NCBI GenBank assembly: GCA_008632985.1
Contig: QPGO01000021.1
Span: 372,001 to 436,000, forward strand
Direction of reading: 5' to 3'
Source: Psammoneis japonica
Taxonomy: Eukaryota
DNA: 64,000 nt
A model generated the notes under the pieces. The model ran no database searches, was not told the DNA's origin, and saw nothing but the letters and a program-made list of their open reading frames with translations. Made by a program: the position numbers and the translations under genes. This document shows, piece by piece, positions 19,051 through 64,000 of the stretch (positions are counted from its first letter, which is position 1; each line of letters starts with the position of its first letter).

Positions 19051-19054
19051 AACT

Positions 19055-24165: not shown

Positions 24166-24169
24166 GAGA

Positions 24170-27690: not shown

Positions 27691-28039
27691 TAGCTCTCTA
27701 GTAGAGAGACTAGAGTTGCGTTGGCGGTGAAAGAAGATGACCGATGACTCCGGGGCTTATTTCTTTGCGAAATCGTCACTTTGAAATCGTCACTAATAAT
27801 GCTACAGTACTGTACTGTACTGTACTTTTTTGCTCTAGACATTTCTCAGAGCATAAATAAATACTGTATGTTTCTGGTCACTGGTCATCGTCATCGACTA
27901 GTGTTGATCCTCGGCATTCGGCATCCCTGATCCTGATCCCTTGCTTGGTACGGTTGTTCCCGGTGCGACTACGACTACAGTACCGGTACAAGAAGAGGGT
28001 TACGAATTGAGATGGAAGAGGCTCTCATAAGTCTGTGAA

Positions 28040-32619: not shown

Positions 32620-34745
32620 ACCTTTCATGCAAAATTCACCCATCTGCGCAGTTAAGAAAGACAACAATGCTGCCAACAAAGGGAAAGAGCAAAGAAAAAA
32701 TAAAAATGTGGGGGTGGCCTGCAACATCATGGGCATCGTTTTTTCTTGGTGTCCGTGGAACTGGAAGTGAGGCTGGGAGCTCATTTTTGAAGTCATGTGG
32801 AGGTGACCTTGCTGAGAACAACAGGTGTTTTCTGGTTTGGCAGCTTGCAGCAATGCATGAATCATGAGAGTTTTCTGCACTGTTCTTTGGTGGTGTTTGG
32901 CAACACTGCACCAATCTGACATTTTTTTCTCAAATGTTTGTTGAGAGCAATTTGTGCTGGCTCTGACACTTCCTCTTCCTTTTTGCCAAAGACAGAGAGG
33001 CACCTTTTTCACTTCATCTCTCCCACACATTTTTGCACCTCTTGACTTCCAATGCAAAAAAATTGGCAAGGCAGACTGAATGACTGAGAAAGGTGAAGGA
33101 AAGCTGGTTGCATTGCCTGCTGGTAAAGAGCAACCCTGCTAATTCTGGGAAGGCACTTTCCACCACACTTGGCTTTGTGGAGTCCGGCACAAGGTTTTGC
33201 TTGCTCTCCTCATCCATGCATGCTGCAGACTCCAGAAATTGAAATGTCTGTGAAGTTGTGCACTGACATTTGCACCAGCATTTGCACACATTTCAATGTC
33301 CCAACTGCTGGCAGAACCATCATAACAGCATTGTGGCACTTCCTCCATGTCTGCCCATTGATGCATCAAGAAGCATCTTCTGCTGGCCTGGCAAGCACTG
33401 TGCAGTGGGGGAGTGCATTGAAGTCCCTGGAGCTGCCATTCTTTTGTTGCTGGCACCAACCACAGTTGACCATGATGTTGCTTGTTTTGTTTTTTTGTTG
33501 TTGTCATTCTGCATTTCCACCATGGTGTTCAGGAGTGGAGTTTGGTGCAAGTTTGGAGTTTGCATTTTGTTTGTGTTCTTTTTCAGCAGTGGTTTTGCCA
33601 GGCAGCCCCATTTCTGCCAGGTTGTTTGCTGCCGCTGGTGACAAGGTGCTCCATTTGCCAGCTCAGGACTGGCCTCTTCATCAAAGGCCAATGTTGTCCT
33701 CTGTGCCAGCATTTTGTGAAGGAGAACTTTCATGTCAGAGTTTGCATGGGGCCGCTGCTGGAGGCACCCATGAACTCCATGATTGCAGGCATGCCAGTGG
33801 GCAGCAATCACAAAGCTTTTGATGTCAAGTGTCACCTTGCTGCTGGAGATGCCATGTGTTGGAAGTTCAATGAGCCACAAGCTGCACAGCATTGCTGGGC
33901 TTGTTGGAGGGGGGGGGCAGCCCACTGAAGGTGAGCTTCCTGACAGCATCAGGTGACTCAGCCAAAAGAGTCACATTCACCTGCAATTAAGGAAGATGGC
34001 AATGCTGCCAATGCTGCCAATGAAAACAAAGAAAAGCAAGAAAAAAAAAACAGCTGTGTTCACCAACAAAAAGATGGGTTCACCATTTCACATGTGGTTG
34101 TGAATGACACAAGAAGAAAAGCTGGGAGCCCCTCATTTTGAAGTGATGCATGGGGGGATGACTTCACCACAGCACACAAATCTGAAGAGTGTTCTGTGCT
34201 TTGCTTTTGGTGGTTGGCAACATTGTGGCAATCCAGTGCTTTTCTTGAGTGATCAACTGCACTCCACCACTGCAGCTGATTTTCATCTTTTTTGACAAAT
34301 GCAGAGAGATGCCCTCCTCACTTCTGCCCATTCCCAAGCTTTTGTGTCTTTTGACTTCAGTTGCAGAAAGATTGGCACAAGGAAAATCAAATGATTGAGA
34401 AAAACAGCACCAATGTGGTGCACCAGTCTGGAGAAACAACTCCACTTTTGGAAAGAGGTGGTGTGTTGTCTTTGCCACCCAGCTCTTTGTTTGTTCTTGT
34501 GGTGTCTGGGGGCTCGAGCTTTCGTTCTCGTTGTCTGCAGAAAATGAGATTTTGGGAGAATCATGTGCAGACATTGACACCAGCATTTGCACATTTCAAT
34601 GTCCCACCTGCTGGCAATGGGAATGGTGTGTGTGTGTGTGTGTGGGGCTGTCAACCACAATCCTCCATTGTTGTTTGTTTTGTTGTTCGTTGTTGTCATT
34701 TTATTTCGGCCATGATGGTGTTCGTGGGAGCGGATCTGGCGCAAG
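32620..34745 (+). repeat. Diverged ~0.8-0.9-kb tandem duplication (~32620-33550 vs ~33950-34745) in a TpA-depleted block starting ~31970
   Basis: Collinear matches: caatgctgccaa, gctgggagc...cattttgaagt, ttgacttc...attggca, accagcatttgcac...atttcaatgtccca(a/c)ctgctggca, gttgtcatt...atggtgttc. Confidence 0.7.
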
Positions 34746-43747: not shown

Positions 43748-44110
43748 TTCGTAGACTGGTCCTTTTTTTCACTCTGTTGTGAAACGCCTCTTTGCCCCTG
43801 GGCAAGTGTCGGCTCCGCATCTTCAATCTCTCATGTCTCACATGTTCGATGTTGAACATACAGTAGAGTACGTGCGTGAAAAACCCGGAAAAGATTTGCT
43901 CAAAAAATTGAATGACGTCATCGCGTCTGACTTCTGGCCTGGCTGCCAGCTGCACAACGTTCACAAAGCACAAAAAGGCAACCACAGACCCCCTGCGGTG
44001 AACATCATCTCATAGACTGGTCCTTTTTTCACTGCCGTGAAACGCCTCTTTGCTCCTGGTTCAAGGGCAAGCATTGGCTTGGCATCTCTGCCTCATGTCT
44101 CATGTTGACA
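43722..44110. repeat. Local duplication of the PPR gene's 5' end and upstream region (~43722-43850 copied at ~43982-44110)
   Basis: ccacagac...ggtgaa(t/c)atcat(t/c)tc(g/a)tagactggtcctttttt...gtgaaacgcctctttgc...ctcatgtctca occurs twice. Confidence 0.75.
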
Positions 44111-44799
44111 GAGTCGGAGCGGTGGGCTGGTGTGCCTCTGACCATCCTCTTTTCTTGTGCAACATCGGAGATGTGGCACCTGTGCCTGCTGGTGTGTGAC
44201 ACGAGCAATGTTGTGAGAATGTTGAGCTCAGTTGTTGTCACAAAAAGCAGCAATGTTTGACCCCACCTGAGTGGAGTCCTTCAAAAATCAACAGCACCAC
44301 ACTGGCTGGGGCTTTCTTTTTGACAGCTGCAACGTTGCTCATTTTCTGTGCAGACAAAGTTTGCAGCACACCACAGCAGCAAAACTTGCTGTTCAGCAAT
44401 CCAAGCTGTGCCCTCTTTCCCCATTCCTTCCTTTTCTCAGCATTGCACCTCATTGGTCTCACAGATGTTCCTCACCACAGATTGTTGTTGCAAAAAATGG
44501 CTCTCTCATGGCACGAGGATCTGCACACAGCATTCGAGCAAGTGCCACCACTGCTTTTGCCAGAGGGCTCATGTGTCTGGCCACCACAAAGCCAGTGGTT
44601 TGAAAGAACCCTCAATGGCAATTTGTGTTGTGAGTGGTGTGTGCTCACATTCTTCATGTTGTTCCTCCACAGACAATTGCACCCACAGTGTCTTGACACA
44701 AAAAGAGAAGGCAGCAGCAGCACCAGTGCCAAGCATTTTTTTGTCCAAAGGGTCTCCCAGGGAGTGAAGGACAAAACAGGTGTGACAACTTTGCAAGCA

Positions 44800-47250
44800 A
44801 AAGTTTGATGTCTAGAAATGAAGATTGTGCCACAACATCATTGTCCAGAGCCAATTTGAAAGGGATCTCCCAATGCTGGAAAGGTTGAGGAGATCAAGAG
44901 GGCGGTGGTGGCACCAGCCAAACATGGAAAATTTGAAATGACTGGTGAGCCAAAGTGTGGGGTGATGTGAGGGGGGGGTGCTCTTGGATTTGGCAGGGCT
45001 CATCTTTCATCTGACTGTGGCTGCACTGCAGTCATTTGCACCACATTTTGTGCCAAGTGTGGTCATGAGCAGCTGTGCTCACATGTGCTCCTCAGTGGGT
45101 GGATGCTGATGTGCAGCTGGAAACAAAACTTTTTTAGCCAATGTGTTTTTGCAGGCTGGACAAGCTGTGAGCCTCTCTGACAGCAGTGCACACTTGACCA
45201 GCTGCTTGCAAGAGACAAATTTGTGCCATGTGTGAGGTTGGAGCAGCAGCAAATTCTGGAAGTGGGTTGGCCAAGATCTTGCACTCAGCCTTGTTGTCTT
45301 TGCTCTCCCACACCATCAGGTGCAACAGCAGCAGTTTTTGCTGGCCTCACTCACACACACCGGATGCCCCAGCACCAGTGCTCACACATGAGAGCTCAGA
45401 TGATGAGCATCCTTCTTGTGGTGTGCATGTGACGTGTCGTGTTTTTGAACAACTGCATCAAACTGCTGTGTGGAAGCTGTGGGCCACATGTTTCAGGAAA
45501 AAGAGTGTGCAGATGACATGAGGCATGGGAGGATCAGGGAGATCTTAATGTGTTGCTGTCAAAAATTGGCAATGGTGTGTCCCTTGTGTCAAGAGAGGGG
45601 AAAGGAGTTGGCAGCTTGGCTTGTCAACAGGGCTGAACTGTGTCATCATGCAAGTTGCTTGGGCAGCACCAAGCAACTGGCCAGAGACTGACACCCTGCT
45701 TGCTCACTCATTTCTGACAATGGCAGTGCCCCCCCTTTGCAGAACAGGGTGCTTGATGAGTTTTTGAAAAGTGTGCACTTTCTGCATGGCAGCTTGAGTT
45801 TGGTGCAGTTGGTGCCCCAGGGAATTCTTGACAGATCTTCCAGTGAAGAGTGCCTCTCAGGCTTTCATGACAGCAGGATTTTTCTCATTGTTTCCACAAT
45901 TGATGGGCAAAACACAGTGCCCATGTCATGTGCATGTCCAAAAAATGTTGCAAGCAAAGCCACCTGCTGAAGTCAAGTGCCTCTCCCCCAGGGGTTGGTG
46001 CTGGTTTCCAGCAGGAGATCCCTGACCAGGCAACAACCAGCAGTTCATGAGCAGACTGGCAGCATCATGAGGCAGAAGTTGTGTGGCTGGCTCAAGACCA
46101 AGAGGTGGGCTGATCCAAAGATGACATTTTGAGAGTGACTTGATGGAAGTGTTGATGATGCACCCAGCACAAGAAAAAGAAGGATCTTGCCAAAGTGGTC
46201 AGAGGACTTTGACTCTCAAGGCACAATTTTGGGTCTAGCTGCCAGGGGCACAGAGCATTCAGGAGAGCTCAATGGCATTTTTCTGGCAACCAATTGTGGG
46301 TGAACTGTGCCATTGCCTTGCCAGATGGCTCTGTTGACCCCCGCCAGACTCAAGTTGCTGCAGAATGACAAGCAGCCTGGCTGGCTGCTTGGATGGCAGC
46401 TGCTGATCTTCCCAGTGTTCTTTTGTGTGACAAAAGTGCAGCAACAAGGAGCACATTGCTTGTGCAGATGCACGAGGAAACAAAAGTCATTTGTGAAAGA
46501 AAACAAGCTCAGCATGCTTGGCACCAGGGTCAGACATTGGTTGGCAACAACTTGGGTCACTGAGAAGAAAGCAGTGTTCAAAATCAAGACTGAGGCTCAG
46601 AAAGGTCTCATCTTTGCACTTGTGATGTCAAGATGGTTGGCATGGTGACAGACGGGTCAAGAAGGCCACAGCCCAGCAAAAAGCTGTGGGGCAACACAGG
46701 TGCTTGTGTGGTTAAATCAAGTGTGCAAAAAACAAGTCCAAAAGTCCACCAGGCAGCTTGAGCAGGAGCTGGCACAAAGCAGCACACCCCCATCATGTAA
46801 ATTGCAGCCCACCAGGAAGGCAAAACAAAAGTGAAAATGTTCCACAGCACAGTGAGCACAAACCACCATGGCAGCAAGCAATGAAAAGTGCTCTGGAGAG
46901 CATCCCTGTCTTGACCCGTACACCCACGGTTGTTGAGGGACAGAAGGATGGCCTTCAGGTCAAAACTCACAAAAAACACAGATGATGGTGATGATGATGG
47001 TTGATGAACACGACATGAATCTGAAGTTTGTGGCATGTTTTAAAGAGCAAGTGTGTTCAAACCCATCCTTGAACAATGGAAGCAGTGGAAACAGTGTGGG
47101 TTCATTGTCAAGCAGTTTGCATGGACAATGTGGGTGAGAGCATCAGAAATTGTGAGGACATCCTGAAGATGTGTCTTGTTGAAAGTGTGGCTCTCACTGT
47201 GATGTTCATCTTGCCAATTGCGAGCATCAGTTTCCTGCCATCACAGAGCT
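44800..47250 (-). mobile_element. Highly degenerate, probably Gypsy-type pol remnant within the TpA-depleted block ~43870-47600
   Basis: Weak minus-strand echoes of RNase H (IVHAN; LLAAMVVC...VEHF...LVG) and of the integrase C-terminus (IFHVWL), in Gypsy order. Confidence 0.35.
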
Positions 47251-48103
47251 TTGGACCATTTTTGCAAGGAGATTCCTGCTGTTTTGGCAGCCATGTGAGG
47301 GGCTCTGAGCTTGTTGACAACAAGGGTCAGCAGGGGAAAGGAAAGGAAAGGAAAGGAAGGGCTGAACAAGGAAGACACCAATTCACATGGTGAGTTTCAG
47401 AATCAGATTGGCAACCGACTCTCAAAGCTTGGCTGAAGGATGCCAAGTTGGCTTGTGATGATTGTGGGAGCTCTGGCACATGCCGTTTGAGGGAGTCAAT
47501 GATGAACAGATCGTGGCTTGTGGCAATGTTGTTGTGAATGGCCTGAGCACGATGAGCAAGTCCTGTTGACAGAGGAAACGATCAAGACATTTCAGCAACA
47601 TAGCGAGAAACTGCATGCTCAGGACATGCGGGCGATGGAGATTACCCGTGAAATTATTGATCATTTTAAAGGAAGTCTCCGTGATGATGATTGCAGGGGC
47701 AGTGATGAACAGTTTTCCATGTTCATGTCCCTCGCCCATGCGGCCGACATTTGTACCGCCTACCCACTCGGACGACGCAAAGCCAGCACAAAAAGAAACG
47801 AGTTATGGTGCGGATACTTCTGCCTTTGGAAATCTATTCATGATAAGCTTCTATGCTGCAGTGAAAAGTCTCAACACGGAACACGGCACGGCCGGTTATG
47901 GCGTTGTTGTTTGACCGGTACGATTTGTGCGAAAGTGTCGGAGGAAAATACGAGCATCTTCTTTGTCGACTGAGTACAAGCATGATAAACCGAAGATGTA
48001 GATGTGAGAGAAATTGGTCGGTTATAGGGATTTGAAGCTACGTGTCATGAAAGAGATCAAACCCATGCACAGAGGAAGATACAAAAGTTGAGAGCTCTCC
48101 TAT

Positions 48104-49697
48104 TCAATGGTGATGATCATCCTTGATGCCAAAGTGTTCCATGGCTGAATGAATGGCGCAATCATACAAGTGCAGTTCCGACGTGTCCAAATGACCCGCA
48201 GGATTTGCAGTCGAGTCACACAACGACTCGTACACTGGTTTATCTGCAAGCTTCTGGGCGAACTCGTCCTTGGCGTCTTTAAGAACGCGAGGATCGGTCA
48301 ACAATTCGACCGCAGTTGCCGCCATGGACTTCGCACAAGCAATCGTTCCCTTCTTGCCGATGCTCATGCCGTGACAAGCAGTGCAACCCCACTGGTGAGG
48401 CGGGATACCAAGCGGCCAGGTCGCGTATACGCAGCCCATGGTGGGAACCTGCCAGCTGACGTCGCCGACATCGGACGAGCCCCCGACCTCTACGTTCTTT
48501 GGAACGGGTAGGATATCCGTGGCCATGCCAAGCTCGGGCTTACCCATTTCTTTCTGGATGGATTTGGCATAGGCATGCTCCTCGTCGGTCCATTGGATAG
48601 GGAAGTAGTCCTTCATGTGTTTGTCCATAAGCTCAGCGAGGCTGTTGTTCGGCAATAAGTCGTAGATTCCGCCAAGGTTGTTGATAACCTCAGTGGTCTG
48701 TGTTGCCAGGGCAGCTCCCTTGGCCATGTCTTTCAACCACGCCTTGTGTTTTTTGACGTTTGCGGCAGAAGGTCCTCGATAGCGAACAAGTACTTTGGCA
48801 TAATCCGGAACCACATTGACCGCCTTTCCTCCCTCGATGATCTGATAATGGAGCCTTGCCGTGGGCACCATTTGCTCACGCATCATGTTGGCTGCCACAA
48901 GAAAGATCTCAGCCGCATGCAGAGCACTACGACCTTCCCAGGGAGCAACACCAGCATGGGCTGTGACTCCTTTCCACTCAATGATCAGGTCAATCGACGC
49001 GGTGGAGTGGAAGTTGCAAGCCGAATTGACAGGACCTGGATGATTGTGAAGGCACACGTCAAGACTGGAAAAAGCACCACATGCTGCCATGTAGTTCTTG
49101 CCGTTAAGCATTTCTTCGGCAGGGCAGCCAATTACCTTGATGGTTCCGGCGATTTTTTCCGTGGCCATGTAGTTCTTGACGGCAATGGAAGCGCCAAGGG
49201 ACGAGGAGCAGATAAGATTATGACCGCAACCATGTCCACTCGTATTGCCATTCTTTGCGGGGGTATGTGTAGGTTGAGTGTCGTTTCCCAGCCCTGGCAG
49301 AGCGTCAAACTCGATTAAGAAGCCAACGGTTGGCGAGCCGCTTCCATACGAGGCGATCCAGGCAGTGTCCATGCCGCCGATACCCTTGTCGGTGATCTTG
49401 AAGCCTTCCTTCTCCAACGCTTCACATGCGTAGGATGAGCTCTTGAACTCCTTGTATCCGAGCTGTTAAGAGCGTGGGAAAAGAGATTTTCAATAAAACA
49501 GCAAGACTCAACAAACAAAACACTCGTCATGCCAACAAGGTAACGCCAAACGACGAATGAATGATGGACGGTCGATGAACATCTTTCCCTTCGTGCTTCG
49601 TTCTCACCTCTGCATACTCCCATACGCTCTTCGCCACGTCCCAAATGGTTTCGGCGGCGTTGTCAACTTCAGCTGATACCTTGGTGTAGTCCGTCAT
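48104..49697 (-). CDS. M20 amidohydrolase, AbgB-like (p-aminobenzoyl-glutamate hydrolase subunit B family); intron ~49463-49607
   Basis: Exon 1 MTDYTK...IWDVAKSVWEYAE joins LGYKEFKSS. Motifs EFDALPGL, GHGCGHNL, GCPAEE, HAGVAPWEGRSAL and GSSDVGDVSW. Confidence 0.9.
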
Positions 49698-50399
49698 CGT
49701 GCAGAAGATTATGGTAGAGATGTAAAAGATTCAGACAAGAATGAGAAGAGGAAAGTTCTGGCGAAGCATACAGTAACCAGAGAAAAAGAAGAAAGATATC
49801 TTTTTAGTACAGTGCATACAGTGCCGGCAGCAGAGACCTAAAGATCCGACGTCATCATTCTAAAAGGAAGTCCTCGTACGAGTAAAAGTACGTAGGGCCC
49901 TCTAGACAAGCTGTGCCATTCTTCTGCCAGAAAGTTGTCAACACATGGCAGCATTCTGAGTTCTCAGTCGCCACTTCTTTTAGCTCGAACTCGGCCAAAT
50001 AGCTCGTGATTTGCATGATTTTTTTTTGAATTTCACCGTGCTTCACCAGCTTAAAAACAGCAAGCCACAAGTCTGTGATGGAGGTGCTGGTCCATCTGCC
50101 AACTCTCATCTGTCTCATGTTTGTTGTGTGTCAAAGAGGCCACACGTGCACCAAATGTTTGTGGACAGACCGCTGCGTTTTGGAGAAATGTCAAGATTGC
50201 CGTCATCGCAATGGGGCCTGACAGTCTCATTTTCGTGCACGATTGGGTGTGAACATGAGTGGTTTTTGCATTCAAAAATGGACACCATCAAAAATCTTGT
50301 TCAAATGCCTTGGCAATTTGGGTGAGAACATGGGGGCAGCTGCCTTGGCAAGAATTGATTGACTCCTCTGTCATGCACATCTGCCTGACACTCAATTGA

Positions 50400-51200
50400 G
50401 GCAGGCAGTTGCTGCCTGGGGTGCTTGATTGGTCCTCACTCTGTCATTCAATGCTGACCAGCAAATGAAGCCCTTGAAGCAGCTTGAATTTCTGGGGGCA
50501 GGTGCTCCATTGTCATGCAAAAAATTCTCGCTCGAACAAAACTCTTGAAATCAACTTGCTCAGCACTGCTCCCCTGCAACAAAATGGTTTCTTGCTCAGC
50601 ACTTAAAATTTGTCTGAGTTGAAAGCTGGGCCATTCAAGCTCAGCTGACACATCACTCTTCAACATCAACAAATGCAGCAGGAACTGCTGGCCTCACCAC
50701 ATGTCATGACAGCTCCTTTGGCGCGCCAATCTTCTGTGACAAAAGATTTAAGAGTGCGCCTTCCATCACATCAAAGTCTTCCAACTTAAATGCCGGCAGT
50801 GAACTGACCGTCACATCTGATTCCACCATGTCTTTTTCAACGCGCTTTCTCTGACAGGATTCTGCCAATGCCACTTGATTGAATTCTGCCATGTCCAAAA
50901 GGAGATTGTGCTTCTGATGATCATGAAGCTGCCATGCCAGGGCTTGTGTGCTCATAATTTGCACATTGCCAAGCACTGCTCTTCCATCCTGTGTGCCATG
51001 TCGACTGGCTCCACTTGCCAGTTCCTCTGAGTCCGAGTTGCCTTCCATGACTGCAACATTTTTCAAAGTTGTGAACCCATCATAAAATGCCAGATGAGCT
51101 CTTGCATTGACATTGGCAATGCCACATGTCTGCAACACATTGTCAACATCTGCTGCGAGTGCTGACATCACCAAAGCCTGAGCTGGTGCTGCTGCCATGC
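50400..51200 (-). mobile_element. Degenerate Ty1/Copia (CoDi-like) gag fragment
   Basis: VLQTCGI...DGFTTL...GRAVLGNVQI...QALAW.L.DHQK...RKRVEK...EDFDVMEGALLNLLSQ resembles the diatom Copia gag N-terminus as I recall it. Confidence 0.6.
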
Positions 51201-51469
51201 TTCCTGTGATGTGAGGATGACAACATGTTGTCCACCATGGATGAACAATGTGACTGTGAGACTCACACAATGGGTGTGGAAAGGAGACTGAATGCTCCAC
51301 GAGAACCATGGAAACAGGTCCACATGGTCAACCGGCAATGAGAGGCCACCCCGCGCCATTTTGTCTGAATGAGCAAATGCTCTGGGCACGAATTAGAGAA
51401 ATGCCAGGCAATGTTGAAGAAGGCAATGGAAGAAGGTTCAAGCAGAGATTTTACTTCACCCAGCTGCAT

Positions 51470-54080
51470 TTTACTTTAGCCTGCTTGCATCATGATGAAG
51501 ACAAGTTCTGGAGTTGTCAGCGAGAAAAGCACTTTCAAATTGTTCATCCAAATAGACTGGTCATTGCGCCAAACCAAATTTGAAATGGATGGGGGGCCCC
51601 AGCATTTTTTTGATGCATCTCACCTTGGTCTGCTTGCATCATGATGATTGGCACGTTGTGGAGTCGTCAGCGAGAAAAGCACACGTGCTTCGTCCAAATC
51701 GACTGGATGCACAGCAGTTTGCATGGCACCAAATTTGAAACAGATGTTTCTACAGTGCGAGCTTCTGTTCCCACTGTAACACACAATGACTTGACATGCA
51801 TTTTACTTTGGCCTGCTTCTTTGCACATGGGTTCACGGGTTTTTTGGGACTGGTGCCAGCAGCTTTGGATGCAACCTTCTTCACAAATCCTGCCAAGGCG
51901 CTCGTTTGCTTTTTGCTGATGGATGATGTGTTCTGCCGTTTCTTGTGCATTGCAGCTTGAAGACCAAGACCTGCAAAGTGAGGCTGAGTTCGTTCCTTCT
52001 TCTTGTTCTCCAGTGGCTTTTTCATTCCGGCGTCTGCTTCCATCTTCCTCATTGCATCCAGGCATGCATTTTGCACGGCATGACAAACATTGTGAAAAGC
52101 CAAGGACTTGTCGTCATGAAGTTGGATCATGTGCCACTGGTCATCAGTCACAATGTGTTCCAGCAGCTCCATGGCGGCTTTAAACTTCTGTGGCTCTGCC
52201 TCCTTGTTCAGAAACCGCAGCTGCAAAAGCCGCTCCTTGGATGGTGATGAAAGGTGTCCATGCTGCTTGAACCAAGTGAGCAACACATGTGAAGACACTC
52301 CTGCACCTGTGCCATTCACCAAGCCATCCACTTTCTCCTGCAGTGTCAGCTTCTTTTTCTTCTTCTTCTTTGAAGACTTGTCACTTGCAAACCGTGTTGA
52401 GAGCAGTGTTGTGGCAATGCGAGGTTTTGGCTTTGGCACCGAGGCCGCCACAGGCTGAGTCGCAGCCACTGACTCGTCAGAATCAATGCAAGGTCGAGAA
52501 GCAGCCGGCACGTCATCAGCATCTGGTGTGCCGCAGCATTGGCAGCCACACCGTTTGGAGTGGAGGCAAGGTTTGCATCAACAATGACACCACAATGGAT
52601 CACGTCATCTTGATTGGACATTTCGAAGAACTTGAGACGTGTCCGTGGTGTCGCCATCACGAATCTTCGCTTCCGACGCAGCATGCTCCAACAAGGTGCG
52701 TGTGATTTCATGGTTCTGACAAAGCTCCTTTGAAACTTCAGCATGATGCCGAATCACAGCAGCCATGCAGGAATGCAAGAAGGGCCGCAGCTCTCCACCT
52801 TTTAGAAATTGAGCAAGGGAGTCAGAGATCATGTGCAATTTTTCAATGAGACGTTCAACGTCCTCTTGTGCATGGCTCCCAAGACATTCCAAGTTCGGAG
52901 CACATTTCTTGGTGGGAGTGTCATCCCAGCCCATCATCGCGTTTGCCGCCAGAAGTGTGAGTTGCAGTGCAATGCGTTTGCAAGTCTTGCCATTGGGAGC
53001 TCCTGGCACCCATCCAACCCGAGCGTCCGCTTCTTCAACAGATGCTCCTTGACGCGAATTCAAGAAGGCAGCCACACCAACTCAAGTGGACTTGGAAGAA
53101 TGATCATTCTGCAGGACCGGATTTGCCTTGCTTCGAATGATGCTGGTCAATTTTGCTGCAACATGCCGGTCACTCACGCTCCACAAGTCTGGGAAAGTGC
53201 ACTTGTGGAGCTCCTTCTCCATGCCGTCTGGACGACAGAGACCTTTCTCACAAGAATGGAAACACACAAAAGCACGGCAGAGATCAAAGAGATGGGACTT
53301 CTAGTTTGGTGGGAAGAGGAGCCCATGCAAATCCACAGTCTTCGGCTCACACCACGTTGCTTCCAAATTCTCATGACACAAATCCCAGAACCACTCATCA
53401 TGCCATTGATGCCTCACTTCCCCTCCACGTCCAGCAGCCACAGCGCCCATCAAAATCCAGCAACGCTGCTGAAGAGGGCCGTTGTTCATCATTGGACAAT
53501 TGCATTGCAGAACGAGAGCAAGAAGCAATGTCTTGATGTCGTTTGCGAGTGCACCATTCTCTCGTCTCAACATTGAATTTCTGTCTGTCACAAGAATGGC
53601 ATTTCGCTGCTTGGCTCAAACACATTCTGAAGCCACGTTTGGAGCCAGAGCCAAAGTCCTTTTGTCAGAACACTCCATGCTGAGGAGGTTGGCTTTGTCA
53701 GTGGCCTTTGCCACATCTTTGAACAGAGGCTTGCACCACTTGTCCTCATCTTCCCAGTCAGGGTGCTTGGGGAACTTCATTTTTAGTGCTTCTTTGACCT
53801 TTCCAAAAATTCACTGCTTTGCATCAACTCCCAATGGCCCGTTGGAGGGATTGTCGTGCCAACAGATGGGCTCACATGACAAGAACTTGCTGAAGCGCAT
53901 CACAAGTGTCCTGAGGTGGCATCCATCCACATGATGTTCCTCCAACCCGTGAAACGGCTTGTCTTGCTTTTTGTCTTGAAACGCATCAAACATTTTGATT
54001 GCAGCCTTGTTGCCACTTGTGGCAGAAGGGGCCCCAGACGCCTCAGTGATTGGCTCCCCAAGGGTCAAAGAGGGCATGCT
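51470..54080 (-). mobile_element. Degenerate Crypton-like tyrosine-recombinase DNA transposon; short direct repeats at its 3' side (~51480-51585, ~51630-51740)
   Basis: Minus-strand YR-type motifs GRGGEV, (Y>H)SSKST(R>*)VG, ARVGW and KT(Y>C)KR, with no RT associated. Confidence 0.55.
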
Positions 54081-54342
54081 GCATGGCTGCTCTGTGGTTG
54101 CGGGTGGCTTCTGTGGCTGCGTCTGTGTTTTTGTGAGACGACATCTCCTCCGTGCTGTGTCTCTCGTCTCGAGCTTCAGCACGGCATCACAGAAGTCTTG
54201 CGGATGATGGTGAGTCTGATGATGTAAAAATTCTGGTGCGGTTCAAGGTCATGTGTGCACACAGACATGGTGTGTTCCATTGGCTTCAACTTTGAGAGAA
54301 CTTTTGGGTTGCTTCTTCTGAAAGTTGCCAATTCTATGCCGG

Positions 54343-54408
54343 AAAAAGGGAGGGACTCGAACCCCCGACCTCGTCCTTCTTCGGCGCATTTCTGCCACTC
54401 AATGGGAA
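54343..54408 (-). pseudogene. tRNA-derived sequence (tRNA pseudogene or SINE head) with B-box
   Basis: Minus strand reads AGTGGCAGAA...GAGGTCGGGGGTTCGAGTCCCTCCC-TTTTT: D-loop-like, T-arm (GTTCGA) and oligo-T. The anticodon arm is not canonical. Confidence 0.45.
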
Positions 54409-54504
54409 TCTTTCGAAAATGACCCGTGACGTAAAAAGCATAAAATGGTTGTGGACGCCTGTAGAATCTACACGTTTTTGTACTGAAACTGTTGTGTTCA
54501 CACA

Positions 54505-54613
54505 ATTTGTGCAAAAATAGACTTGACTGTTGTCGGGTCAGGTGCTGTTTTTGCAAATGCATTGAAGAAAAACACACCTGATCAGAAAACAGTCAAGTCC
54601 ATTTTTCGCAAAG
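54505..54613. repeat. Imperfect ~110-nt inverted repeat (hairpin)
   Basis: tttgtgcaaaaatagacttgactgtt...tcaggtg pairs with cacctga...aacagtcaagtccatttttcgcaaa. Confidence 0.7.
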
Positions 54614-55789
54614 TTAAAATTCACTGAGGACAGACAGACAGACTTTTCAATGATTGTCTTGGTGCTGTTCTGCACATTTCCACGTAAATGACTCTACAGC
54701 GCGAAAGATTGCTGTTGAGCTCAGACAGAAGATGATGATGCGGCAATGCATTGTCTCATTGCTGGTGGCACCAGCAACAAGCAATGAGAAACTCAAGGCT
54801 GGATCGTCGAGCAGAGGCATTTTTTTGAACAGCTCGAATTTTTCCTGTTTTCTCTCGCACTTCGCCCGTGTTGTTTTTTGACACCTCTGAGCACCCCCAA
54901 AGCACTTGTGAGTGTGTCTGGCCCCCATCAGGGCTGTTGGACCTCCATGTGAACTGCGCTTGCCAACCTTCAAATGCCAACTGTCGGATTCGGTGCGGTT
55001 GTCATTTTCAATGAACCGCCATTTTTCGCCAAAATCGCGCTGCTTGGGGGAGACAAGCCACAACTTTCCAGGAAAGGCTGACAACTGGCATTTGACTGGC
55101 TGCAGACACATCTGCAGTTGTCAAGCCAGAGATCCTGCATGGTCACAACCATCGCCAGCACACTCTGTGACATCTTTCGAAGGGACAAAGTTCGACCTGT
55201 CGCTGAATTTTTTTTTGGCAAAAGTGTGCGCGTTCAGTGTTGTGCACCCTTTCTTTCAAAAAAAATTGTGAGCTTGCAAAAAACAGACCTCTGCTTGCCA
55301 ATCCATCCTCAATCTGTCATCAGTGCAAGCCGCGCCACTTTTCTCCTGCACGGATTGCGCTCTTGCACAGAGGGCGCCCCTGCACGGGGCGCATGCCTGG
55401 CCGGCGATTGCAATCTGCTCGTCCGACCGTGCAATTGCTTCACAATTGCAGTCAACCAATCGCTGCTCCACAGCAATGCAGTCAACCACTTGCAATCTGA
55501 TTGCTGTGGAAAACTTTGCAAATTGGCCGGCACTGCGAGCAAGCATTGAGCGGGCAAATCGCGCTTGAGTTCACATGGTGTTGACACTCCCTCTCGAATG
55601 AAGAATCTGCCAACCGCAAAGCAACTTTCTGGCAGACTCAAATTTAACTGCAATGAGCCCTTTGGTGAGGATGTTGGTGTGTTGCAAGTGACGCGTTCCA
55701 GCTCTGGGTGGGACCTCGTGCTGCTGCACTGTGACATCAACAGTTTTTTGGATCACGTCGCATGTCGCGCACGCACATTTCTACGAGTC

Positions 55790-56720
55790 ACATTCTACGA
55801 AATTGTTTCATGCTCCCTGTTTTGCGAAGCCAAAGGCTTTCTGTTTTCAACATTTGTGAGAATGAAAATGCACTGGGCACATTCTTTGACATCTGAAGAA
55901 CACACCCGGGCAAACTGTCAATGATGTGCTCCAAGCATGAAGGAGGAGACACGTTCGTAAAATTGCCTCTTTTTCTGTTGGCAATCATTCACATTTTCAT
56001 TGCAGCACAAATTTGCTGCGCAGCTCACATTCTGCGGGCCCAATGTCACACGGAGTCCCACCTGGGACTGGAACCCATCAAGTCTGTTGCAATCTTGCAC
56101 ACAACAACTCTGTTCGGTTTCAGTTGCGAGCAAAACCAGCAACACTTGGCTGCGCAGTGCTTGGACCTTGGCGTCATTTGTCCAGGTTCCATGTGAGCCA
56201 GAGTCAAAGCCCCAGCATTGTCCTCCCACATGGCAGTTTTGATGGCATTGGTGGTTCCCAGACCAACTCCAATGCCTTGAAAAATGGCTTGCATGGCGCG
56301 AAGAAAGGGAAGGACGGTTTTCATGCAAGTGGAGAGAGCGTTGTGCTCTGTGCTCTGCCTCCCCATGGTTGAGAGTGCGCAATCTCGGGTGCAAGCTTGC
56401 TGGACCAGATGACAGGACAGACATGCTCCAGATGCAGGTGGGAATTTGTGTGACGTTGGGCCTGTGGAATTCTGCATGCAAGCTCCGCAGTGAAATTGTC
56501 AGGTCATGAAAATGTCAATGACAGCCAACAGAAAAAGAGGCAATTTTGTGAACGCGCAAACTCATCCACGATTTAAGCACATCATTTTTCACTTGGCTGG
56601 GTGCACTCTTCAGACATTGAAGAATGCACCCAGTGCATTGTTGTTCCCAAAAATTCTTTAAAAATAAAACGTCTGGGGCTTTGCAAAACAGCGAGTCGTC
56701 TGGAACAATTCTGTGGGAGA
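55790..56720. repeat. ~215-bp diverged inverted repeats (55790-56002 and ~56504-56720) flanking a Copia RNase H fragment
   Basis: The reverse complement of the left arm matches the right arm: atgaaaatgt.aatga...gccaacagaaaa.gaggcaatttt...agcacatcatt...cttcaga...aagaatg..cccagtgcatt...gcaaaacag. Confidence 0.75.
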
Positions 56721-58450
56721 AAACATGCAGAAATGCACACGAGAAACATGCGGCTGATCACAAAAAACACTTGTGTCACACATTGGCACTGCAAGCTCCC
56801 ACCTGAGGCTAGAGTGCATCAACAGTTTGAAGTGCAAATGACAAATCCTGCACAGCTCTTGATGCAAGCTGGGTCTTGCTTGTCTTCATGAGGCCACAAT
56901 CCAGCAAAACAGGAGTCAACAAACATGTCAATGTCAAAGTCTCCGGATGGCTTGAGGACCAGACCTTCCTCAAGCGTGCCCTTCAGGTGTCGTCCGATCC
57001 TTTCAAGGGCTGGTTCATGTGAGAGCAGTGTGGACTGTGAACAAAGCAGGCTGCTGAGCTTGTGGCACAGGGGATGTGGGTGTCCAGGCCTTTGGCAGAC
57101 AGCCTGCATTGAGGGCGTCGATGACACATTTGGCTGGGCCACTCTGAGTCAGTTTGACAGTGCCGTTGTTGGTGTCACGGTCCATGTGCACACCCGAAAA
57201 TCCCATGATGGAATCTTTGACTTTGACGTGCTCTTGTTTTGGTGAAAAGAAAAGTGTGTCGTCAATGTGCACAAGGCAGATGACTTCATCTCCGACACAA
57301 ATGGACAAGGATCCACGTCATCTTCAAGTTTTGATTTGAGATGAAGAAAGAAATTGCGCGGTCCTTGTTTGAGACCACAGATGGTCTTCTTGAGTTTCAG
57401 CACTTTGCCTGGTTTTGAGCATCTGCAAGGCATTTGCACGAATGTGCCAGAGCATTCGCGCTCTTCAGGTGTCATGGAATCCCATTTTGGGTCCTTGTTG
57501 ATTGGTGCATGGACAAAAGCCACAACATGGTTGACTTGTTTGGTGGAGAGTTCAAGAATTTGAGACAATGTGTGCATCCGCCAAACTGTCATCCAATTGA
57601 CAACCTGAGCACAGGCATCAAAACAATTGACACCTTCCAATTGCTTGTCACCACAGACGCAGAAGCGGGCTTTTTGTTTTTGGATTGATCCATCGGGATG
57701 CCATTTGCATTTGAAGGCCCAAGTGCATGTGTTCATCCAGTCTTGGCGGTCAACTTCTTCCCAAGCATCTTTGCCACTGAAGAGGGAATCAATTTCAATG
57801 TCACAAGCTTTGAGATGGGCTGCACAATCTGGTCCACTCATTGCTTGCTCCCAAGTCAGATTGTCAGCTCAGCATCAGCTGCGAAAGCCAGAGGGTGCAT
57901 TTCGTTGAGTGCACCGTGTTCTTGATTGGTGTTGTTGTTGAAGACATTGCTCACAGTGCACACAAGTCCTTGGATCAGAGTGCATTTGTCATGCTGTCCC
58001 ATTGCAATGCTGTCAAAAATTGCTTGTTCAGTGTTTTGGACTTGACAGAGCATTTGGGATTCTTGTGTGCAGTTGGCGATTTGTTGGTTGGAATGCGGAT
58101 GTTGGCCATCATGGCCTTGATGAGTCAATCCAGTTTCTTGATTGTGCGGCCACTCTGTGTGTGAGTTTAAGGAGTCAGAGCATTCGGAGTCTGTTGCATG
58201 GACTCGGCTCCCTCTGAACCAAAACACAGATCATCAGGCAAGTCGTGATGGTCAACAAGAGACAACAGTTTGTCATCACTGTTGTTGCTGAATTCATTGA
58301 TTTCAACTCCCTCTGGAGCATTGAGTTGCATGGATCTGGCACACCATCTCCATCCAAATTCACAAGAAGAGGACTGTCAAAGCAAACCACATGGATTGAG
58401 TCACATTTCAAAACTTGATGCCAACCAAGCAGGTTTTGAAATGTCACACC
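56010..58450 (-). mobile_element. Degenerate Ty1/Copia (CoDi-like) pol, RT + RNase H, interrupted at ~56480-56810
   Basis: WAFKCK..PDG..K.KARFCV.GDKQ, LKKTICGLKQGPRNF, CLVHIDDTL (YxDD site), RIGRHLKGT, FAGLWPHEDKQDP, EDNAGAL and MTPRSKH. Confidence 0.9.
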
Positions 58451-58973
58451 TCAGAGCTTCTGTTGCTGATTTTGATGATGTGTTCATGATCAAGGCAGCA
58501 GTGAAGGCAGGAAAGGACACATGCTAGTGTGGTGTTGTTGCTCACTAGAGCAGCACCACTAGATTGTGGTCTGTGTTGTGGCTCTCCTGTGCTGGGTGAA
58601 GGAGCCTGTGCAACTTGTTCATGCAGCAATTGCACTCATGGGCATTCACCTTGGCATGGCTTTGACACCCCACATGCTGAGTCTACCAAGTGTTGCCTCG
58701 AAGGCATCATGCTCTGCTAGCTAGAGAGGGCCCAGAGCACATTAGTGAGGATGGCATCTCAGTGAAATGCTGTCAATTCGAAATGAAGATTGCTCGATGT
58801 CGCATGGTGAAACTAACCTTCTCGTTGCTGCTGCGGAGCGCTTTGTAACAAATGCATGAGTGTAGCACAGTAGGTTGTTAGATCAGATTTTAGTAGTTGG
58901 ACACCCTTTAGCCGAGATCTAAGCCACGAAGTGTCCAAGGGGTCAACAAAATGTTCGTATAGAAAAGTTTAGT

Positions 58974-61612
58974 TCATTTAGAGCTACCTGCAGTAGGTTT
59001 CACCAGCTCGAGAAGTTGAACACCTTTCGGACCAAACAATTCTTCGCAATTGCTGACATCAACGGTAATGAGATGATCGTGAAGACGGCACTGGCATTCT
59101 CCCTTATTCATGCACTGTTTCTTCGCGAAGTAAACGTTTTCAGCGATGGGGCCTGGGGTTGCAGACGCTGTGCTCTCCACTGGATATTGAACCAGAACTC
59201 GAACCATGTCGCGCTTTCGCTTCTTTCCTGTCTGGTTTTGTACATTGATGCCCGGGTTCTTCTTTCAGGGGTTATATCGGCCTCTTCGATACCGAACAAA
59301 GCTTCTTTGGTTTCCTCCCAAAGGCCACGCAACTCAATGGTCTTCAGGCTCGAAGGAGGCTTGCTGCTGCCTCTATTCTCGCGATAAAACAATTCAGGTA
59401 CAACTGTGCGCAGTGCTTCCGGCTGGTTGAGCTTAAACTTCAACTTCGCCTGCAAAGCAGCGAAACGAAAATCGTTCCAGGCACGCGTCCGCATAAGAAA
59501 CGCTACATCAGGTCCAAACAGTGTATCAGGGAAGCAGAATGGTGCAACCGCACCTTCGAAACGAGCGTTAACAGCTGCCTTTATCCACTGCATGGTGTCA
59601 AAAGGCGCTCTGCACTTGATCGCAAGCACGCCATAAGAAGACCACTCTGGTACCATGAAATTCACCAAAGAAGAATCTTGTCCAACCTGAGATCTCAGTA
59701 TTTTCTCGAATCTAGTTTGGATAGAAGGGAGCAAGAATTCTTCAAAAACATTGCCCCTCTCCGAAGATGACGTGGTGCTTGCAATTTTCTTTGAGATGGA
59801 ATCTTGCAGTCCAAAAAAAGCGATGCTTGCCTGGATAACCAGGGTCTCCCAAATAACAGCCTCTACAAAGTCAGCCCCAGTATCGCTTTCCATATGCACG
59901 GACGCGATACCCGCTTCGATCATGTCCGCAGCTTTTTTCTTCACCAGTTGGCGGCTACCACCAAACGAGAATTCAAAGGTGGCTCGTCGAAACGTTTCCT
60001 GCGCTTCCGACCATTCTTGGCCCGCCATGTCAAACATCTTGCTGACGGCTGAGAAGGCCGATTTATCCTGCAAACTCCATGTAAACCGCCTGTCCTCGTC
60101 CTTTGAGTTTGCAGTACAAACCTCGATATATCGATTCAACGATCTAATAAGAGGTTGCTCTGCGAGATCGAAGTTTCCCCGAGGTTCACGCTTAGACGTT
60201 GTTTGCTGCCGTTCAATATACGTTTCAATAAACGTTGCTACCCACCGTGGTCGTCCTTTCAGCCAGTCACCAGCATGCCGGACAAGGTCATCCTTCACAT
60301 CGCGTAGATCAAGGAACTTGCTCATATACTGAATCACGTCGTCTCTGGACATATTCTTCAGTCCAACGAAACAAAAAGAGTGATCCTTTAGATTTGGTTT
60401 GACCACCAAAGATCTTGCCGCAGCTTTGTATGCTTTGATTGACATACCGGTCCCACTAAAGCAAGGAAAATGGATTATCTCCATTGTCAATTGTAGGTTA
60501 GTCAAGCCTTTGAGGAATGCAGAGTAAGCCGACCGCGGCTCATTTCCATCTGTGGACAAGAACACGCCCTTCAGTTCCGTCAAGAGCACCTGTGCCTCGT
60601 CCATGAAGCAGCTATGCCGGTCTAGCTTTCGAGTCTCATCCATAGAACACTCCAACTTGTTTTTGACGATCTTCCGGGAGACATCCAGAAATATATCGCA
60701 TCCCAGGACATCTTCTGGAAATAGCTGAAGTAAAAGCCATTCGTAGCAGCTCAGGCCTCGTCTTCGCGTTGACAACAGCACCGTATTGATCCCGTGAAAC
60801 ACTTCTGTCCGCACACAGAGCAACACCTGCAGCATTTTCTGAACGTCCTGAAGATTTTTTACACTGAGTGCTTTACGGTCGTCATGGTCTGAGGGGATTG
60901 GTATCATCTTCTCAGCACAATGTTGGATCAAGAATGCGACATCTCTTGAACCTGGATTGTATTTTGGGTCAGCCGCAGCAGACAGATAAAAGCCGTAGTT
61001 GTGGGAGAGATATTCAAATATGGTTCTGGTTTTCCCAGCACCAGATGTTCCGTACAAAGCGATAGGACCTATTTTCTGGGACCTTTCAATATAATTGTAA
61101 CCACTCGTTTTCTTGTGCTCCTCGTTTTCTAGGTCGTGAAGAAGTAGAGACGGTCTCTTTTTGTTCCCAATAAGGGCCGGTACACCGGTTTCGTTTCCTC
61201 TCCAATAACATTTAAAGGCGGCTTCATCGCTGATTTCGAAGCATGGGAGCGACGGCGCATTGCGATCCCATTGTTGGAGATGATCTTTTACCAGGTGTTC
61301 CATACAAAGGGGTTGCGGCGCCTGTGACACCTGCTGCAAGCCTTCGTGTTTCTGCTGCAGAGTGACCACAATGAGAGGACTTTCATCAGTTGTTGTATCC
61401 AAATCTTTCACTAGCATTCCAGGGCGGAGAGGGTCGTCTTTTGTCGAGTCGGCACCCGCAGCGAAGACCTTGAGCTCGGGAGCGGCACAAGCAAGACGCT
61501 CGCCCCATTTTGTCTTGATCGCATCCTTCAAATCATACACATCAGCACCATCTTGCACTTTCACTTTCGCCACCGGTGCACCGTCGAGCTTGTACCAAAT
61601 TTCGATCGTCAT
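58974..61612 (-). CDS. Crinkler (CRN)-like protein: ubiquitin-like N-terminal domain, P-loop NTPase, REase-fold C-terminus; apparent frameshift near 59210
   Basis: N-terminus IWYKL...VYDLKDAIK...APELKVF...PLIVV, Walker A GTSGAGKT, Walker B CFMDEAQ, and FPDTLFGPDVAF...LQAKL. The C-terminus continues in ORF 58974-59207. Confidence 0.75.
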
Positions 61613-61812
61613 TCGTCATGGTGCCTGATCGCGACACACAACAACACGAAAACACACGGCGAGGCGCGCGGGGCACGACCGGGCTCCTGCGGTTTACAAT
61701 AGCCCACGTTCCTACCGTACTGCACACCGTGAGATCCACGCGAGCTTCGGCACGGCACGCGCGAACCTGCATCAACCCGCGTGCGTCATTGGAACTGTGG
61801 ACCAGGTTGCAA

Positions 61813-64000
61813 GCGGCTCACGCCGCCCGTCTTGTTCCTTCTCCTGCGGCTCTCTATGACAGTGCTATCTAGAGATCTTCTAATGATGGACTGGAATGGC
61901 TTTACTAGCGGATGCGCAAGCCTCATTTCCAAAAACCCAAGCTGGAACGGCAGGGCCAGAGGGCAGGAGAGGTGGGAGCATCAAAAACCATCTAGCGGCT
62001 TCTTGCTCTTTGTTGCTCTTCGGAAGAATGAGTGAAGCAAACGAGAGAAGAGCAGAAAAAACCGTCATTTGCTCGCCAAGTTCGCGCAAGCACGTTCAAA
62101 TTTGAATTCAAATGGTTTGCATGACCCAACGGTCAAATGCGGGTCATTTGCCTCGTCGCACTGCACAAGGTGGGCGGCTCACGCCGCCCGTCTTGTTCCT
62201 TCTCCTGCGGCTCTCTAGCGCCATCTAGAGATCTTCCAATGATGGACTGGAATGGCTTTGCTGGCAGATGTGCAAGCCTCATTCCCAAAAACCCAAGCTG
62301 GAACGGCAGGGCCTTCCAGCAACCACCCACAGTGCCGTGCACTTTTGGGAGGGTGGGTGGGTTGAGGCAGGAAGGCTGTGGTGATCAGGCGTCTTGAGGA
62401 TTTTGAGGGACGTCAGCATTGGGGTGGAGGACGAAGTCGCCACCGGCGAGCATGTCGCGAGCGAAGTTGCGCATGACTGGTTCTGCTTGCAAGTGCAGGT
62501 GTCGCAACATTTCGTCGGATCGCCAGCGGCCTGAGAGCCGAATGAGATCGGTGTCTGCGCGGGCACAAAGGAGGGCCATTGCTCCGGCGGCACGAAGACA
62601 CCGAGCGGCAACATCTCGGGTGGTGAAGCCGAGATTAGCCGGACCGAGAGCAGTGACAGCATTGCGCAGCATGCTGGTGATGTCAGCCGGGAACACACGA
62701 CGCCAGGTGTTGTTTTGAAAGTGAACACCAAGGGGTGTGTCAGGGAGCGCACCGTGGGTGCGCAAGTGTTGGACACGGCGGATGAGGGCTTGAACCGGGC
62801 ACAGGTGGGGGTGACCGGAAAGACCAAGCCCTGGAACTTCGCCTCGCACTCCATTTTTCTGGGTGGCAAAGGTGAGAGTGGCGAAGTCTGCTGTGTCAAG
62901 GTGTGCAAGTGGAACTTGCATGGCACCCAGGTGAGCACCACCAGACGCAAGCCGGACATCGGCGAGACGAAAGGGGGTGGTGTCTGATGGTGTTGCGGTG
63001 CACTCGCCAGGCCGTGACAAGAAGAAAAAGGCAAGTGCAATCATTTCAGCAATGGCTTGTGTGCCCGGGTCATTGCTGAGGGCTGCGGCGGTCATAATCC
63101 ATTGCAGCACTGCAATTGGGACCGGTTTTACGCGGTCTGGGGGTGGATCCTGCTTCTTGTAAAAGCGGACTTGCCGGGTGAGGTGGAAATCCATTGTGCC
63201 TTGGGATGTGTGGCGTGGATCCGGGGACCCCATTGCAGCGAACGTTTGGCCAACCGAACGTGCGGCATCTTCAGCGGTTCTTCCACGGACGGGATTGCCC
63301 ATCGGCGCGAGGACTCCTGTGCGGTGTCGGTGCAAGAAGACTTGGAGGAAGACAACAGGGTCGTCAACGTCTTCGAGGAGTGGGTCAATGGCCAAAGAGG
63401 AGCAGAACTCTCGCCATTTGTCCCAATGGGTGTTGGCGGCGGAGGCTCTGGAAGAGGTGACGCCATGCTGGACTGCGCGTTGAGCAGCATTGAGATCACG
63501 CATGAACTCAGTTCTGGTGGAGGCGTCCAGAGACGCCAGGAGAGTTTCTGCAGACAGTGCAAATTAAAGTGGTGCAAAAATTCACGGTTGGACAAAGACT
63601 GCAGTCGTGAGGCATCGTCAGCGGCAGTGTTGAGGCATCCAGGCAGGTGGTCATGCAACCCCAAGTGGCGATGGCAGCGTTGATGGCAGGATTGGCATCG
63701 AAGCAACCGGGAGGCGGGTTTGACGGCAGTGGTGGCACCTTTACGTTGCCAACACATGGTGCCTGAATTGTCGGTGTGTGAAAGACTGGCACGTTCACGG
63801 ATGTCAAAACAGTCGGCGGCGCCGAAGGACTGAATGACACTGCCGGCAAGTTCCAGGTCTGTGTTGGTGATGGGACCGCGTGGGTTGGAGAAAGTGGAGA
63901 GTTGACTGCTGACACTTTTGGGAAAGGGCAGTCGCCACACTGCAGGACCCGCATCTCTCTGTTGACAGCGTCTGCAATTGCCAAAACGGAGAGTGGCTGC
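61813..64000 (-). mobile_element. Ngaro/DIRS-type tyrosine-recombinase retrotransposon, 3' part, with split direct repeats (62174-62313 and 61813-61957)
   Basis: The RNase H ORF (ITNTDLELAG, TDN, WQRKG, NTAADDASR) overlaps a YR ORF. A repeat-spacer-repeat arrangement follows, consistent with B1-A2-B2. Confidence 0.85.
62385..63503 (-). pseudogene. Tyrosine recombinase of the Ngaro/DIRS element; open frame but the catalytic Tyr reads His
   Basis: FFFLSRPGECT, QKNG, CPV, ARCLRAAGAMAL and GRWRSDEMLRHL, with CAC at 62499-62501 where Tyr is expected. Confidence 0.85.

Follow-up and report, generated by a model that had tools for sequence, protein, structure and literature searches.

We analysed a stretch of 64,000 nucleotides from the genome of the diatom Psammoneis japonica (contig QPGO01000021.1 of assembly GCA_008632985.1, positions 372,001 to 436,000 of the forward strand). 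This stretch is called the window hereafter, and all coordinates are positions within it. It contains, at 55610-58325 on the minus strand, a dead, 5'-truncated and frame-shifted remnant of a Ty1/Copia pol gene encoding reverse transcriptase (RT) and RNase H, in which neither a tyrosine codon nor a TpA dinucleotide is left in the RT and RNase H coding sequence. The change of TpA is complete in these coding bases, is present on both strands and is restricted to discrete blocks of the window. It was probably produced by a transition process acting at the DNA level, specific for TpA and confined to such blocks. The element itself is an ordinary dead Copia fragment, and what is unusual is the mutational regime that it has recorded.

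Four in-frame pieces of the remnant, amounting to 447 codons after removal of overlaps, were aligned with the 150 best phmmer matches and, separately, with 94 closer relatives spanning RT and RNase H, whose tyrosine content is normal (1.7-3.8%). No tyrosine was found in the 447 codons, where 13.0 were expected, and this was accompanied by an excess of cysteine (30 observed, 10.0 expected) and histidine (16 and 9.6) and by a deficit of arginine (14 and 23.9). Tyrosine is kept at 0 of the 11 columns at which it is the majority residue among the 94 relatives (now His at six, Cys at three and Phe at two), whereas the other majority residues are kept at 237 of 341 columns, or about 70% (Fisher p=3.2e-6). 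At columns with a consensus of at least 90%, Tyr is kept at 0 of 6 (four His, two Cys) and other residues at 135 of 179 (p=3.1e-4). These near-invariant columns carry Tyr in 95-99% of the 94 relatives. The tyrosine of the YxDD motif, present in 93 of the 94, is replaced by His in the window, where the motif reads L-V-H-I-D-D; the plus-strand GTG at 57267-57269 corresponds to a CAC codon on the minus strand, as a first-pass annotation of the sequence had proposed.

The Tyr-derived residues in the N-terminal part of the RT are His at 57817, 57700 and 57529, Cys at 57625, 57613 and 57379, and Phe at 57442. The catalytic part of the RT has His at 57269, in YxDD; the segment 56822..57022 has His at 56989 and 56890 and Phe at 56923 and 56845; and RNase H has His at 56345 and Cys at 56156 and 56144. 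All of these His and Cys sites except 57817 and 56890 had been named by the first-pass annotation, and these ten sites do lie at columns that are often or always Tyr in the relatives; His at 57817, 57230 and 56890 had escaped it. Its wider statement, that every conserved tyrosine had gone to His or Cys, holds for 9 of the 11 Tyr-majority columns and for all six near-invariant ones and fails at the Phe columns. Two of the latter (57442 and 56923) are Tyr-majority in the set of 94 and a third (56845) is added by the set of 150; Phe is present at the three columns in 23-67% of relatives, and we assume that it was probably the ancestral residue there in this lineage. The replacements at the 11 columns are not spread evenly over the single-nucleotide neighbours of tyrosine, with nine His or Cys, two Phe and no Asn, Asp, Ser or stop. 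There is likewise no change of Tyr to Arg, that is, no double change of TA to CG.

Because TAY codons alone encode tyrosine and a functional RT needs these tyrosines, CAY (His) must go back to TAY by a T>C change and TGY (Cys) by an A>G change. The direction is therefore from TAY to CAY or TGY and not the reverse, and the polarity proposed in the first-pass annotation is supported by the comparison of Tyr retention with the relatives. Both strands are involved: 8 changes are Tyr>His, which correspond to T>C in the coding strand, and 4-5 are Tyr>Cys, which correspond to A>G. Since transitions also prevail in ordinary decay, the share of His and Cys is weak evidence by itself; the strong evidence is that no Tyr-majority column has kept its Tyr, whereas about 70% of the other columns have kept their residue. 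Altogether, the 98 mismatches at consensus columns were classified as 15 TA losses, 22 CG losses, 9 other transitions, 27 transversions and 25 multi-step changes, TA and CG being given priority when the ancestral codon was ambiguous; the single-step TA losses comprise 8 TA>TG and 7 TA>CA changes.

A change of the same kind, partial or complete, is seen in some of the public Copia relatives (P0346, P0374, P0375, P0355, P0054, P0087, P0099, P0123 and P0131). In both P0346 and P0374, 4 of the 11 Tyr-majority columns have His or Cys, and five shorter public Copia matches have no Tyr at all. As judged from these protein sequences, the relatives suggest that half-done and finished copies may occur elsewhere.

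At the DNA level, the 1,437 coding bases of the Copia RT and RNase H hold 0 TpA, against 52.7 expected at the density found outside the blocks. Over 56010-57850, the observed/expected ratio is 0.03 for TA, 1.66 for TG, 1.79 for CA, 0.42 for CG and 0.88 for ApT, and ApA and TpT are undepleted; the G+C content of 56001-58000 is 0.488, versus a window background of about 0.48. The remnant lies in a TpA-free block of 8.5 kb, delimited at 50000..58520 from 500-base bins and the positions of residual TpA. The block ends abruptly on the right at about 58520, and TpA reappears at 58525-58526. The window contains eight such sharp-edged blocks (1-500, 10001-11900, about 16500-19400, 23100-27500, 32000-34700, 44000-47500, 50000-58520 and 62000-64000), the sharpness being seen at 500-base resolution, and intact genes adjoin them. 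The blocks hold 94 TpA in 26,426 bases (3.6 per kb), versus 1,379 in 37,574 bases (36.7 per kb) in the rest of the window, and the TA observed/expected ratio of the neighbouring genes is about 0.55. The 94 TpA that survive in the blocks are found mostly in TTAA (19), TTAG (12), ATAA (11) and CTAG (10), whereas the contexts ATAT, GTAT, ATAC, TTAT and GTAG are nearly absent. This may reflect a preference for flanking bases or a secondary origin of some TpA; with so few sites, no conclusion was drawn.

Decay of CpG is superimposed in the Copia element, about half of the CpG of its block having become TpG or CpA. In agreement with the first-pass annotation, which had noted Arg to Cys, Trp or Gln changes of the kind expected from CpG decay, Arg is kept in only 6 of 18 columns and 10 of the 12 losses are to one of these three residues. 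The CG observed/expected ratio is 0.0-0.17 in 23501-27500, 0.42-0.76 in 52001-57500 and 0.73-0.87 in 62001-64000, and in the last of these blocks it is combined with a TA ratio of 0.05-0.14. Because the loss of CpG varies among the blocks while that of TpA is near complete in all of them, the two losses are separable. With a TpA survival below 1/53 and a CpG survival of about 0.42, a rough estimate is that TpA was lost at least about 4 times faster than CpG in the Copia block.

A pair of 97-base repeats (61861-61957 and 62217-62313) straddles the edge of the block that begins at 62000. The two copies differ at 8 sites, all by transitions: four have TA outside the block and CA or TG inside, two have CG versus TG or CA, and the remaining two are T/C differences of another kind. 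Both copies retain one TpA, which lies in a CTAG. To the left, the two repeats can be aligned over about 43 further identical bases.

The sequence is supported by contigs built from k-mers of public reads from a single sample. One of them, from X1 and 4,963 bases long, spans 56880-61841 and departs from the window at 4 letters and by 1 gap; its depth of 60 is that of unique genes, and it connects the RT, devoid of TpA, with the neighbouring unique gene. A further contig covers 56201-56496 without any difference. The single-copy differences in or near the element, at 57439 and 58530, are CG/TG differences and not TpA sites. The X2 contigs cover only the two gene regions 48005-49464 and 58961-61611 and not the RT, and nothing was inferred from them; X3 contributed no contig. 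When contigs of at least 85% likeness were summed, the depth over the RT reached about 180-200, versus 60 for single-copy DNA; a few related copies of the Copia RT thus exist.

The process that we propose would act on DNA and strike both strands about equally, a single strike destroying its own target. It would be aimed at transposon-derived blocks, where it would outpace CpG decay and, by a wide margin, ordinary substitution. Essentially every TpA of the 8.5-kb transposon-derived block has become TpG or CpA and, because each TAY codon contains a TpA, every tyrosine has become His (CAY) or Cys (TGY), including the catalytic one of YxDD. As for the chemistry, a putative enzyme directed to silenced or foreign chromatin would deaminate the adenine of 5'-TpA-3' in either strand, and the resulting hypoxanthine would be read as G at the next replication. 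Adenine deamination is the simplest reading and the likeliest chemistry of those considered, but taken alone it is a tentative proposal that we hold with clearly less than even confidence. Its closest competitor places the modification on the thymine of TpA (for example as a base resembling 5-hydroxymethyluracil), which would mispair with G or be processed to C under the same targeting. Modified thymines occur in some protist lineages and, TpA being palindromic, this route gives an identical sequence outcome, so that all of our counts fit it equally. We nevertheless regard it as unlikely, since there is no evidence of a modified base here and, as far as the accessible part of the literature goes, the only published proposal for such a signature is adenine deamination, with a candidate enzyme identified by homology only.

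Explanations that dispense with a TpA-specific process on DNA fare much worse. Ordinary neutral decay of a pseudogene, together with deamination of methyl-CpG, would account for the CG ratio of 0.42 and for the arginine losses, and transitions are the commonest changes in most genomes. It is nonetheless highly improbable, because it would not spare about 70% of the other conserved residues while keeping no Tyr at 11 columns, nor remove all of some 53 expected TpA while leaving ApT, ApA and TpT unchanged. Moreover, the TA ratio of the neighbouring genes is about 0.55, and 62000-64000 shows the loss of TpA without that of CpG. Biased gene conversion towards G:C among repeats, or selection against TpA in heterochromatin, could raise G:C over A:T in repeated DNA. 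The block has the G+C content of its background, however, and the other A/T dinucleotides are undepleted; no selection, for its part, could favour the destruction of catalytic residues in an element that functions, and this one is in any case dead. We give these two explanations as little credit as ordinary decay.

Editing of the retrotransposon RNA from A to I by an ADAR-like enzyme before reverse transcription, fixed upon integration, would be in keeping with the preference of ADAR enzymes for a U on the 5' side of the edited A (10.64898/2026.01.13.699255). Editing of the sense RNA would yield only A>G and hence only Tyr>Cys, whereas eight Tyr>His changes stand here beside the four or five Tyr>Cys. 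The depletion also extends to nested inserts that are not Copia and to the whole 8.5-kb block of unrelated sequence, and the non-coding repeat pair across a block edge shows the same changes, so that this explanation too has almost no likelihood. A sequencing or assembly artefact, in which a modified base at TpA in silenced DNA would be miscalled, is only marginally better placed and remains very improbable. In its favour, the reads may be the assembly's own data and the type of library is not on record. Against it, contigs built from k-mers at single-copy depth match the assembly over the two intervals given above, and miscalls on the two strands would conflict and generate CG, whereas CG is in deficit and Tyr has nowhere become Arg. 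The frameshifts, nested insertions and arginine decay moreover belong to a truly degraded element.

Several points weigh against the TpA-specific process that we favour. It is inferred from the end state of one copy, and no de novo mutation was seen; its targeting may go by copy number, by chromatin state or by foreign origin; and, TpA being self-complementary, the sequence does not distinguish the adenine route from the thymine route. Phe at two to three Tyr-majority columns is not a product of transition, and fits only if it was ancestral, as assumed above. Among the single-step replacements, 27 of 73 are transversions, and 25 of the 98 mismatches are multi-step in a comparison with relatives that are 46-61% identical, so that much ordinary divergence is mixed into the mismatches. 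Finally, given that the read set may be the source of the assembly, a slip of assembly is ruled out but not every artefact.

The identity of the element is clear from its relatives. The best phmmer match has an E value of 4e-64 and 56% identity, with 3,655 proteins at E<=0.001 and 36 at E<=1e-30; in a second search for relatives the top identity was 61%, and the best relatives carry RVT_2 (PF07727) and gag_pre-integrs domains. Pfam RVT_2 matches the longest piece (57290..57868) with 25.2 bits (E=1.5e-5), under the cut-off of 31.6, as expected because of the decay of the element, and a Pfam scan of the other three Copia open reading frame (ORF) pieces gave no match. The remnant was mapped by tblastn with full-length relatives, using P0004 as query, in five pieces that follow the order RT, RNase H and protein end, with the linker that precedes the RT upstream. 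The N-terminal part of the RT lies at 57290..57868 (residues 349-550 of P0004, 53% identity). It is followed after a frameshift by the catalytic part at 57063..57296 (frame -3), in which YxDD appears as H-I-D-D, and after a further frame change by the end of the RT and the start of RNase H at 56822..57022 (residues 691-757, 55% identity). RNase H is at 56085..56474 (residues 736-863, 42% identity) and the final 25 residues of the polyprotein are at 55610..55684 (residues 866-890, 64% identity, E=1.3e-4), all on the minus strand. A remnant of the integrase-RT linker occupies 57869..58325, also on the minus strand, where the tblastn segments of many full-length relatives end at or before 58325.

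None of these segments matched an integrase core upstream of the linker, which places a 5' truncation near 58325-58520, and a repeat search over 49500-64000 found no pair of direct repeats resembling long terminal repeats (LTRs) around the element. It is therefore a truncated, frame-shifted fragment and not a whole element. The interval 56010..57850, proposed in the first-pass annotation, does contain the Copia RT/RNase H core, but the remnant extends from 55610 to about 58325 and includes two foreign inserts. As in the Ty1/Copia elements of diatoms, the 'CoDi' groups, an RT of the RVT_2 type precedes RNase H, which forms the C-terminal end of pol. The copy in the window differs from these elements by the lack of LTRs, gag, protease and integrase, by its frameshifts and by H-I-D-D in place of YxDD.

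The two inserts belong to one family of short repeats. The first (56475..56821), recognised from the gap in the tblastn map and an inverted repeat, is high-copy, its summed contig depth being 4,457-30,239 versus 60 for single-copy DNA. The second (55685..56084) has the opposite orientation and differs from the first at 104 of 331 aligned pairs. With summed depths of up to 30,000-51,000 against the same single-copy value of 60, the repeats of the family may number hundreds of copies. The nested copies are TpA-poor with a few TpA kept, and all 4 TpA of 56010-57850 fall in the first insert. At 12 sites one insert has CA and the other TG. These sites were considered as evidence of polarity and dropped, an ancestral TA and an ancestral CG fitting them equally.

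Outside the blocks, the window is gene-dense with long intron-free ORFs, and the genes between blocks include those for an AAA ATPase, a patched-like protein, a cullin, a PPR protein, a peptidase and a methyltransferase. The best named matches of the uninterrupted cullin ORF of 708 amino acids (38072-40195) are from diatoms, with identities of 83-85% for Triceratium and Odontella, 80% for Seminavis and 77% for Phaeodactylum. An intact ORF of 835 amino acids (59108-61615, minus strand), which adjoins the Copia block, has a normal TpA content and is covered by X1 and X2 contigs; it has a borderline match to a Crinkler N-terminal domain (24.4 bits for a cut-off of 24.6). Another host ORF (28031-29590, plus strand) contains an ice-binding-like adhesive domain (PF20597, E=3.4e-14).

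The TpA-free blocks are themselves rich in open frames. They contain 131 ORFs of at least 85 amino acids in 26 kb, with long stop-free frames in all six frames, because the stop codons TAA and TAG need a TpA. A Pfam scan of 116 of these ORFs, the other 15 being left out as overlapping the Copia core at 55897-58214, revealed no other transposon domain and a single sub-threshold match, to HTH_74; 12 block ORFs, scanned among 26 ORFs of the window, had no Pfam match. The first-pass annotation had counted Copia as a second transposon superfamily with this signature; these scans confirmed no other superfamily in the window, and the only hint of one comes from the frame described next. In the block 62000-64000, an open frame of 392 amino acids (62388-63563, minus strand) has a single Tyr. 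A language-model search placed it near eukaryotic clusters, in some of which 27-86% of the members have Phage_integrase. It gave no Pfam match, and a search of solved structures returned only a noise match (E=0.34). On this model-based placement it is possible that the frame derives from a tyrosine-recombinase transposon, in which a C-terminal R-H-L-H might once have held the catalytic Tyr.

A comparable regime is already known from a preprint on the chlorarachniophyte Bigelowiella natans (Mettrop et al., 10.64898/2026.01.13.699255), to which the diatom case adds a host lineage. According to that preprint, the mutation rate of two integrated viral regions in mutation-accumulation lines is about 1000 times that of the rest of the genome; of the 231 mutations in these hypermutable regions, 230 are A>G or T>C changes, each of them on TpA (10.64898/2026.01.13.699255). 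The same source describes coding sequences that are depleted in TpA as enriched for reverse transcriptase and DDE endonuclease domains. Its authors liken the process to the repeat-induced point mutation (RIP) of fungi and propose an ADAT2-like deaminase, a candidate based on homology only (10.64898/2026.01.13.699255). Both systems change TpA to TpG or CpA on both strands (A>G and T>C) and are confined to regions of foreign origin, adjoining normal genes being spared. The footprint is also the same, a depletion of TpA with enrichment of CpA and TpG, of which we see the end state only. The hosts differ, a member of the Rhizaria in one case and a diatom in the other. The main targets described for B. 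natans are a giant-virus insert and a virophage insert, the giant-virus region still having 3.3% TpA among its dinucleotides (10.64898/2026.01.13.699255), whereas here a retrotransposon block with variable CpG decay is affected. The depletion is thus partial, with a measured rate, in B. natans and essentially complete, and known from its end state alone, in P. japonica. Our search, which reached the literature only in part, found no diatom report of TpA hypermutation.

Tyrosine codons provide a built-in marker of polarity in such cases, with TA as the starting point and TG or CA as the product, and no sister copy is needed. They turn an oddity of composition into evidence for a directional mutation process. 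If this process is the same as in Bigelowiella, a DNA mutator directed at the TpA of mobile DNA would exist in at least two distant algal lineages. Diatoms may possess a dedicated mutator for genome defence that recognises transposon-derived DNA independently of CpG methylation and edits each of its TpA to TpG or CpA, probably by adenine deamination; this would be the system of Bigelowiella, and thus an old and widespread 'reverse RIP' of stramenopile, alveolate and rhizarian lineages. We advance this as a conjecture, held with slightly less than even confidence. With copies that are saturated, half-done or untouched, the diatom genome lends itself to a dissection of the targeting. There is also a practical consequence: the spurious long ORFs of the blocks and domain scores below cut-off (25 bits for RVT_2) bias both transposon annotation and gene prediction, and gene predictors may call false genes in TpA-free blocks, in which almost no ORF has a Pfam match.

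RIP in Neurospora and other ascomycetes depends on duplication, on a sexual phase and on a protein resembling cytosine methyltransferases. Like the changes in the window, it is made of transitions only, is biased to a dinucleotide, is confined to repeats and transposons, kills their coding capacity and skews dinucleotide ratios. Its direction is the opposite, however, since RIP changes C:G to T:A, mainly CpA to TpA, so that TpA is gained and G+C lowered, whereas here TpA is erased with G+C unchanged. The decay of methylated CpG by deamination resembles the CG to TG or CA changes of the Copia element and the attendant replacement of Arg by Cys, Trp and Gln, but it cannot remove TpA, and the losses of TpA and CpG are independent among the blocks of the window. 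The editing of retroelements by APOBEC (on cDNA) or ADAR (on RNA) likewise leaves inactivating clusters of transitions with a preference for a neighbouring base. Those enzymes act in the replication cycle and on one strand, whereas in the window both strands and the neighbouring non-Copia sequence are marked.

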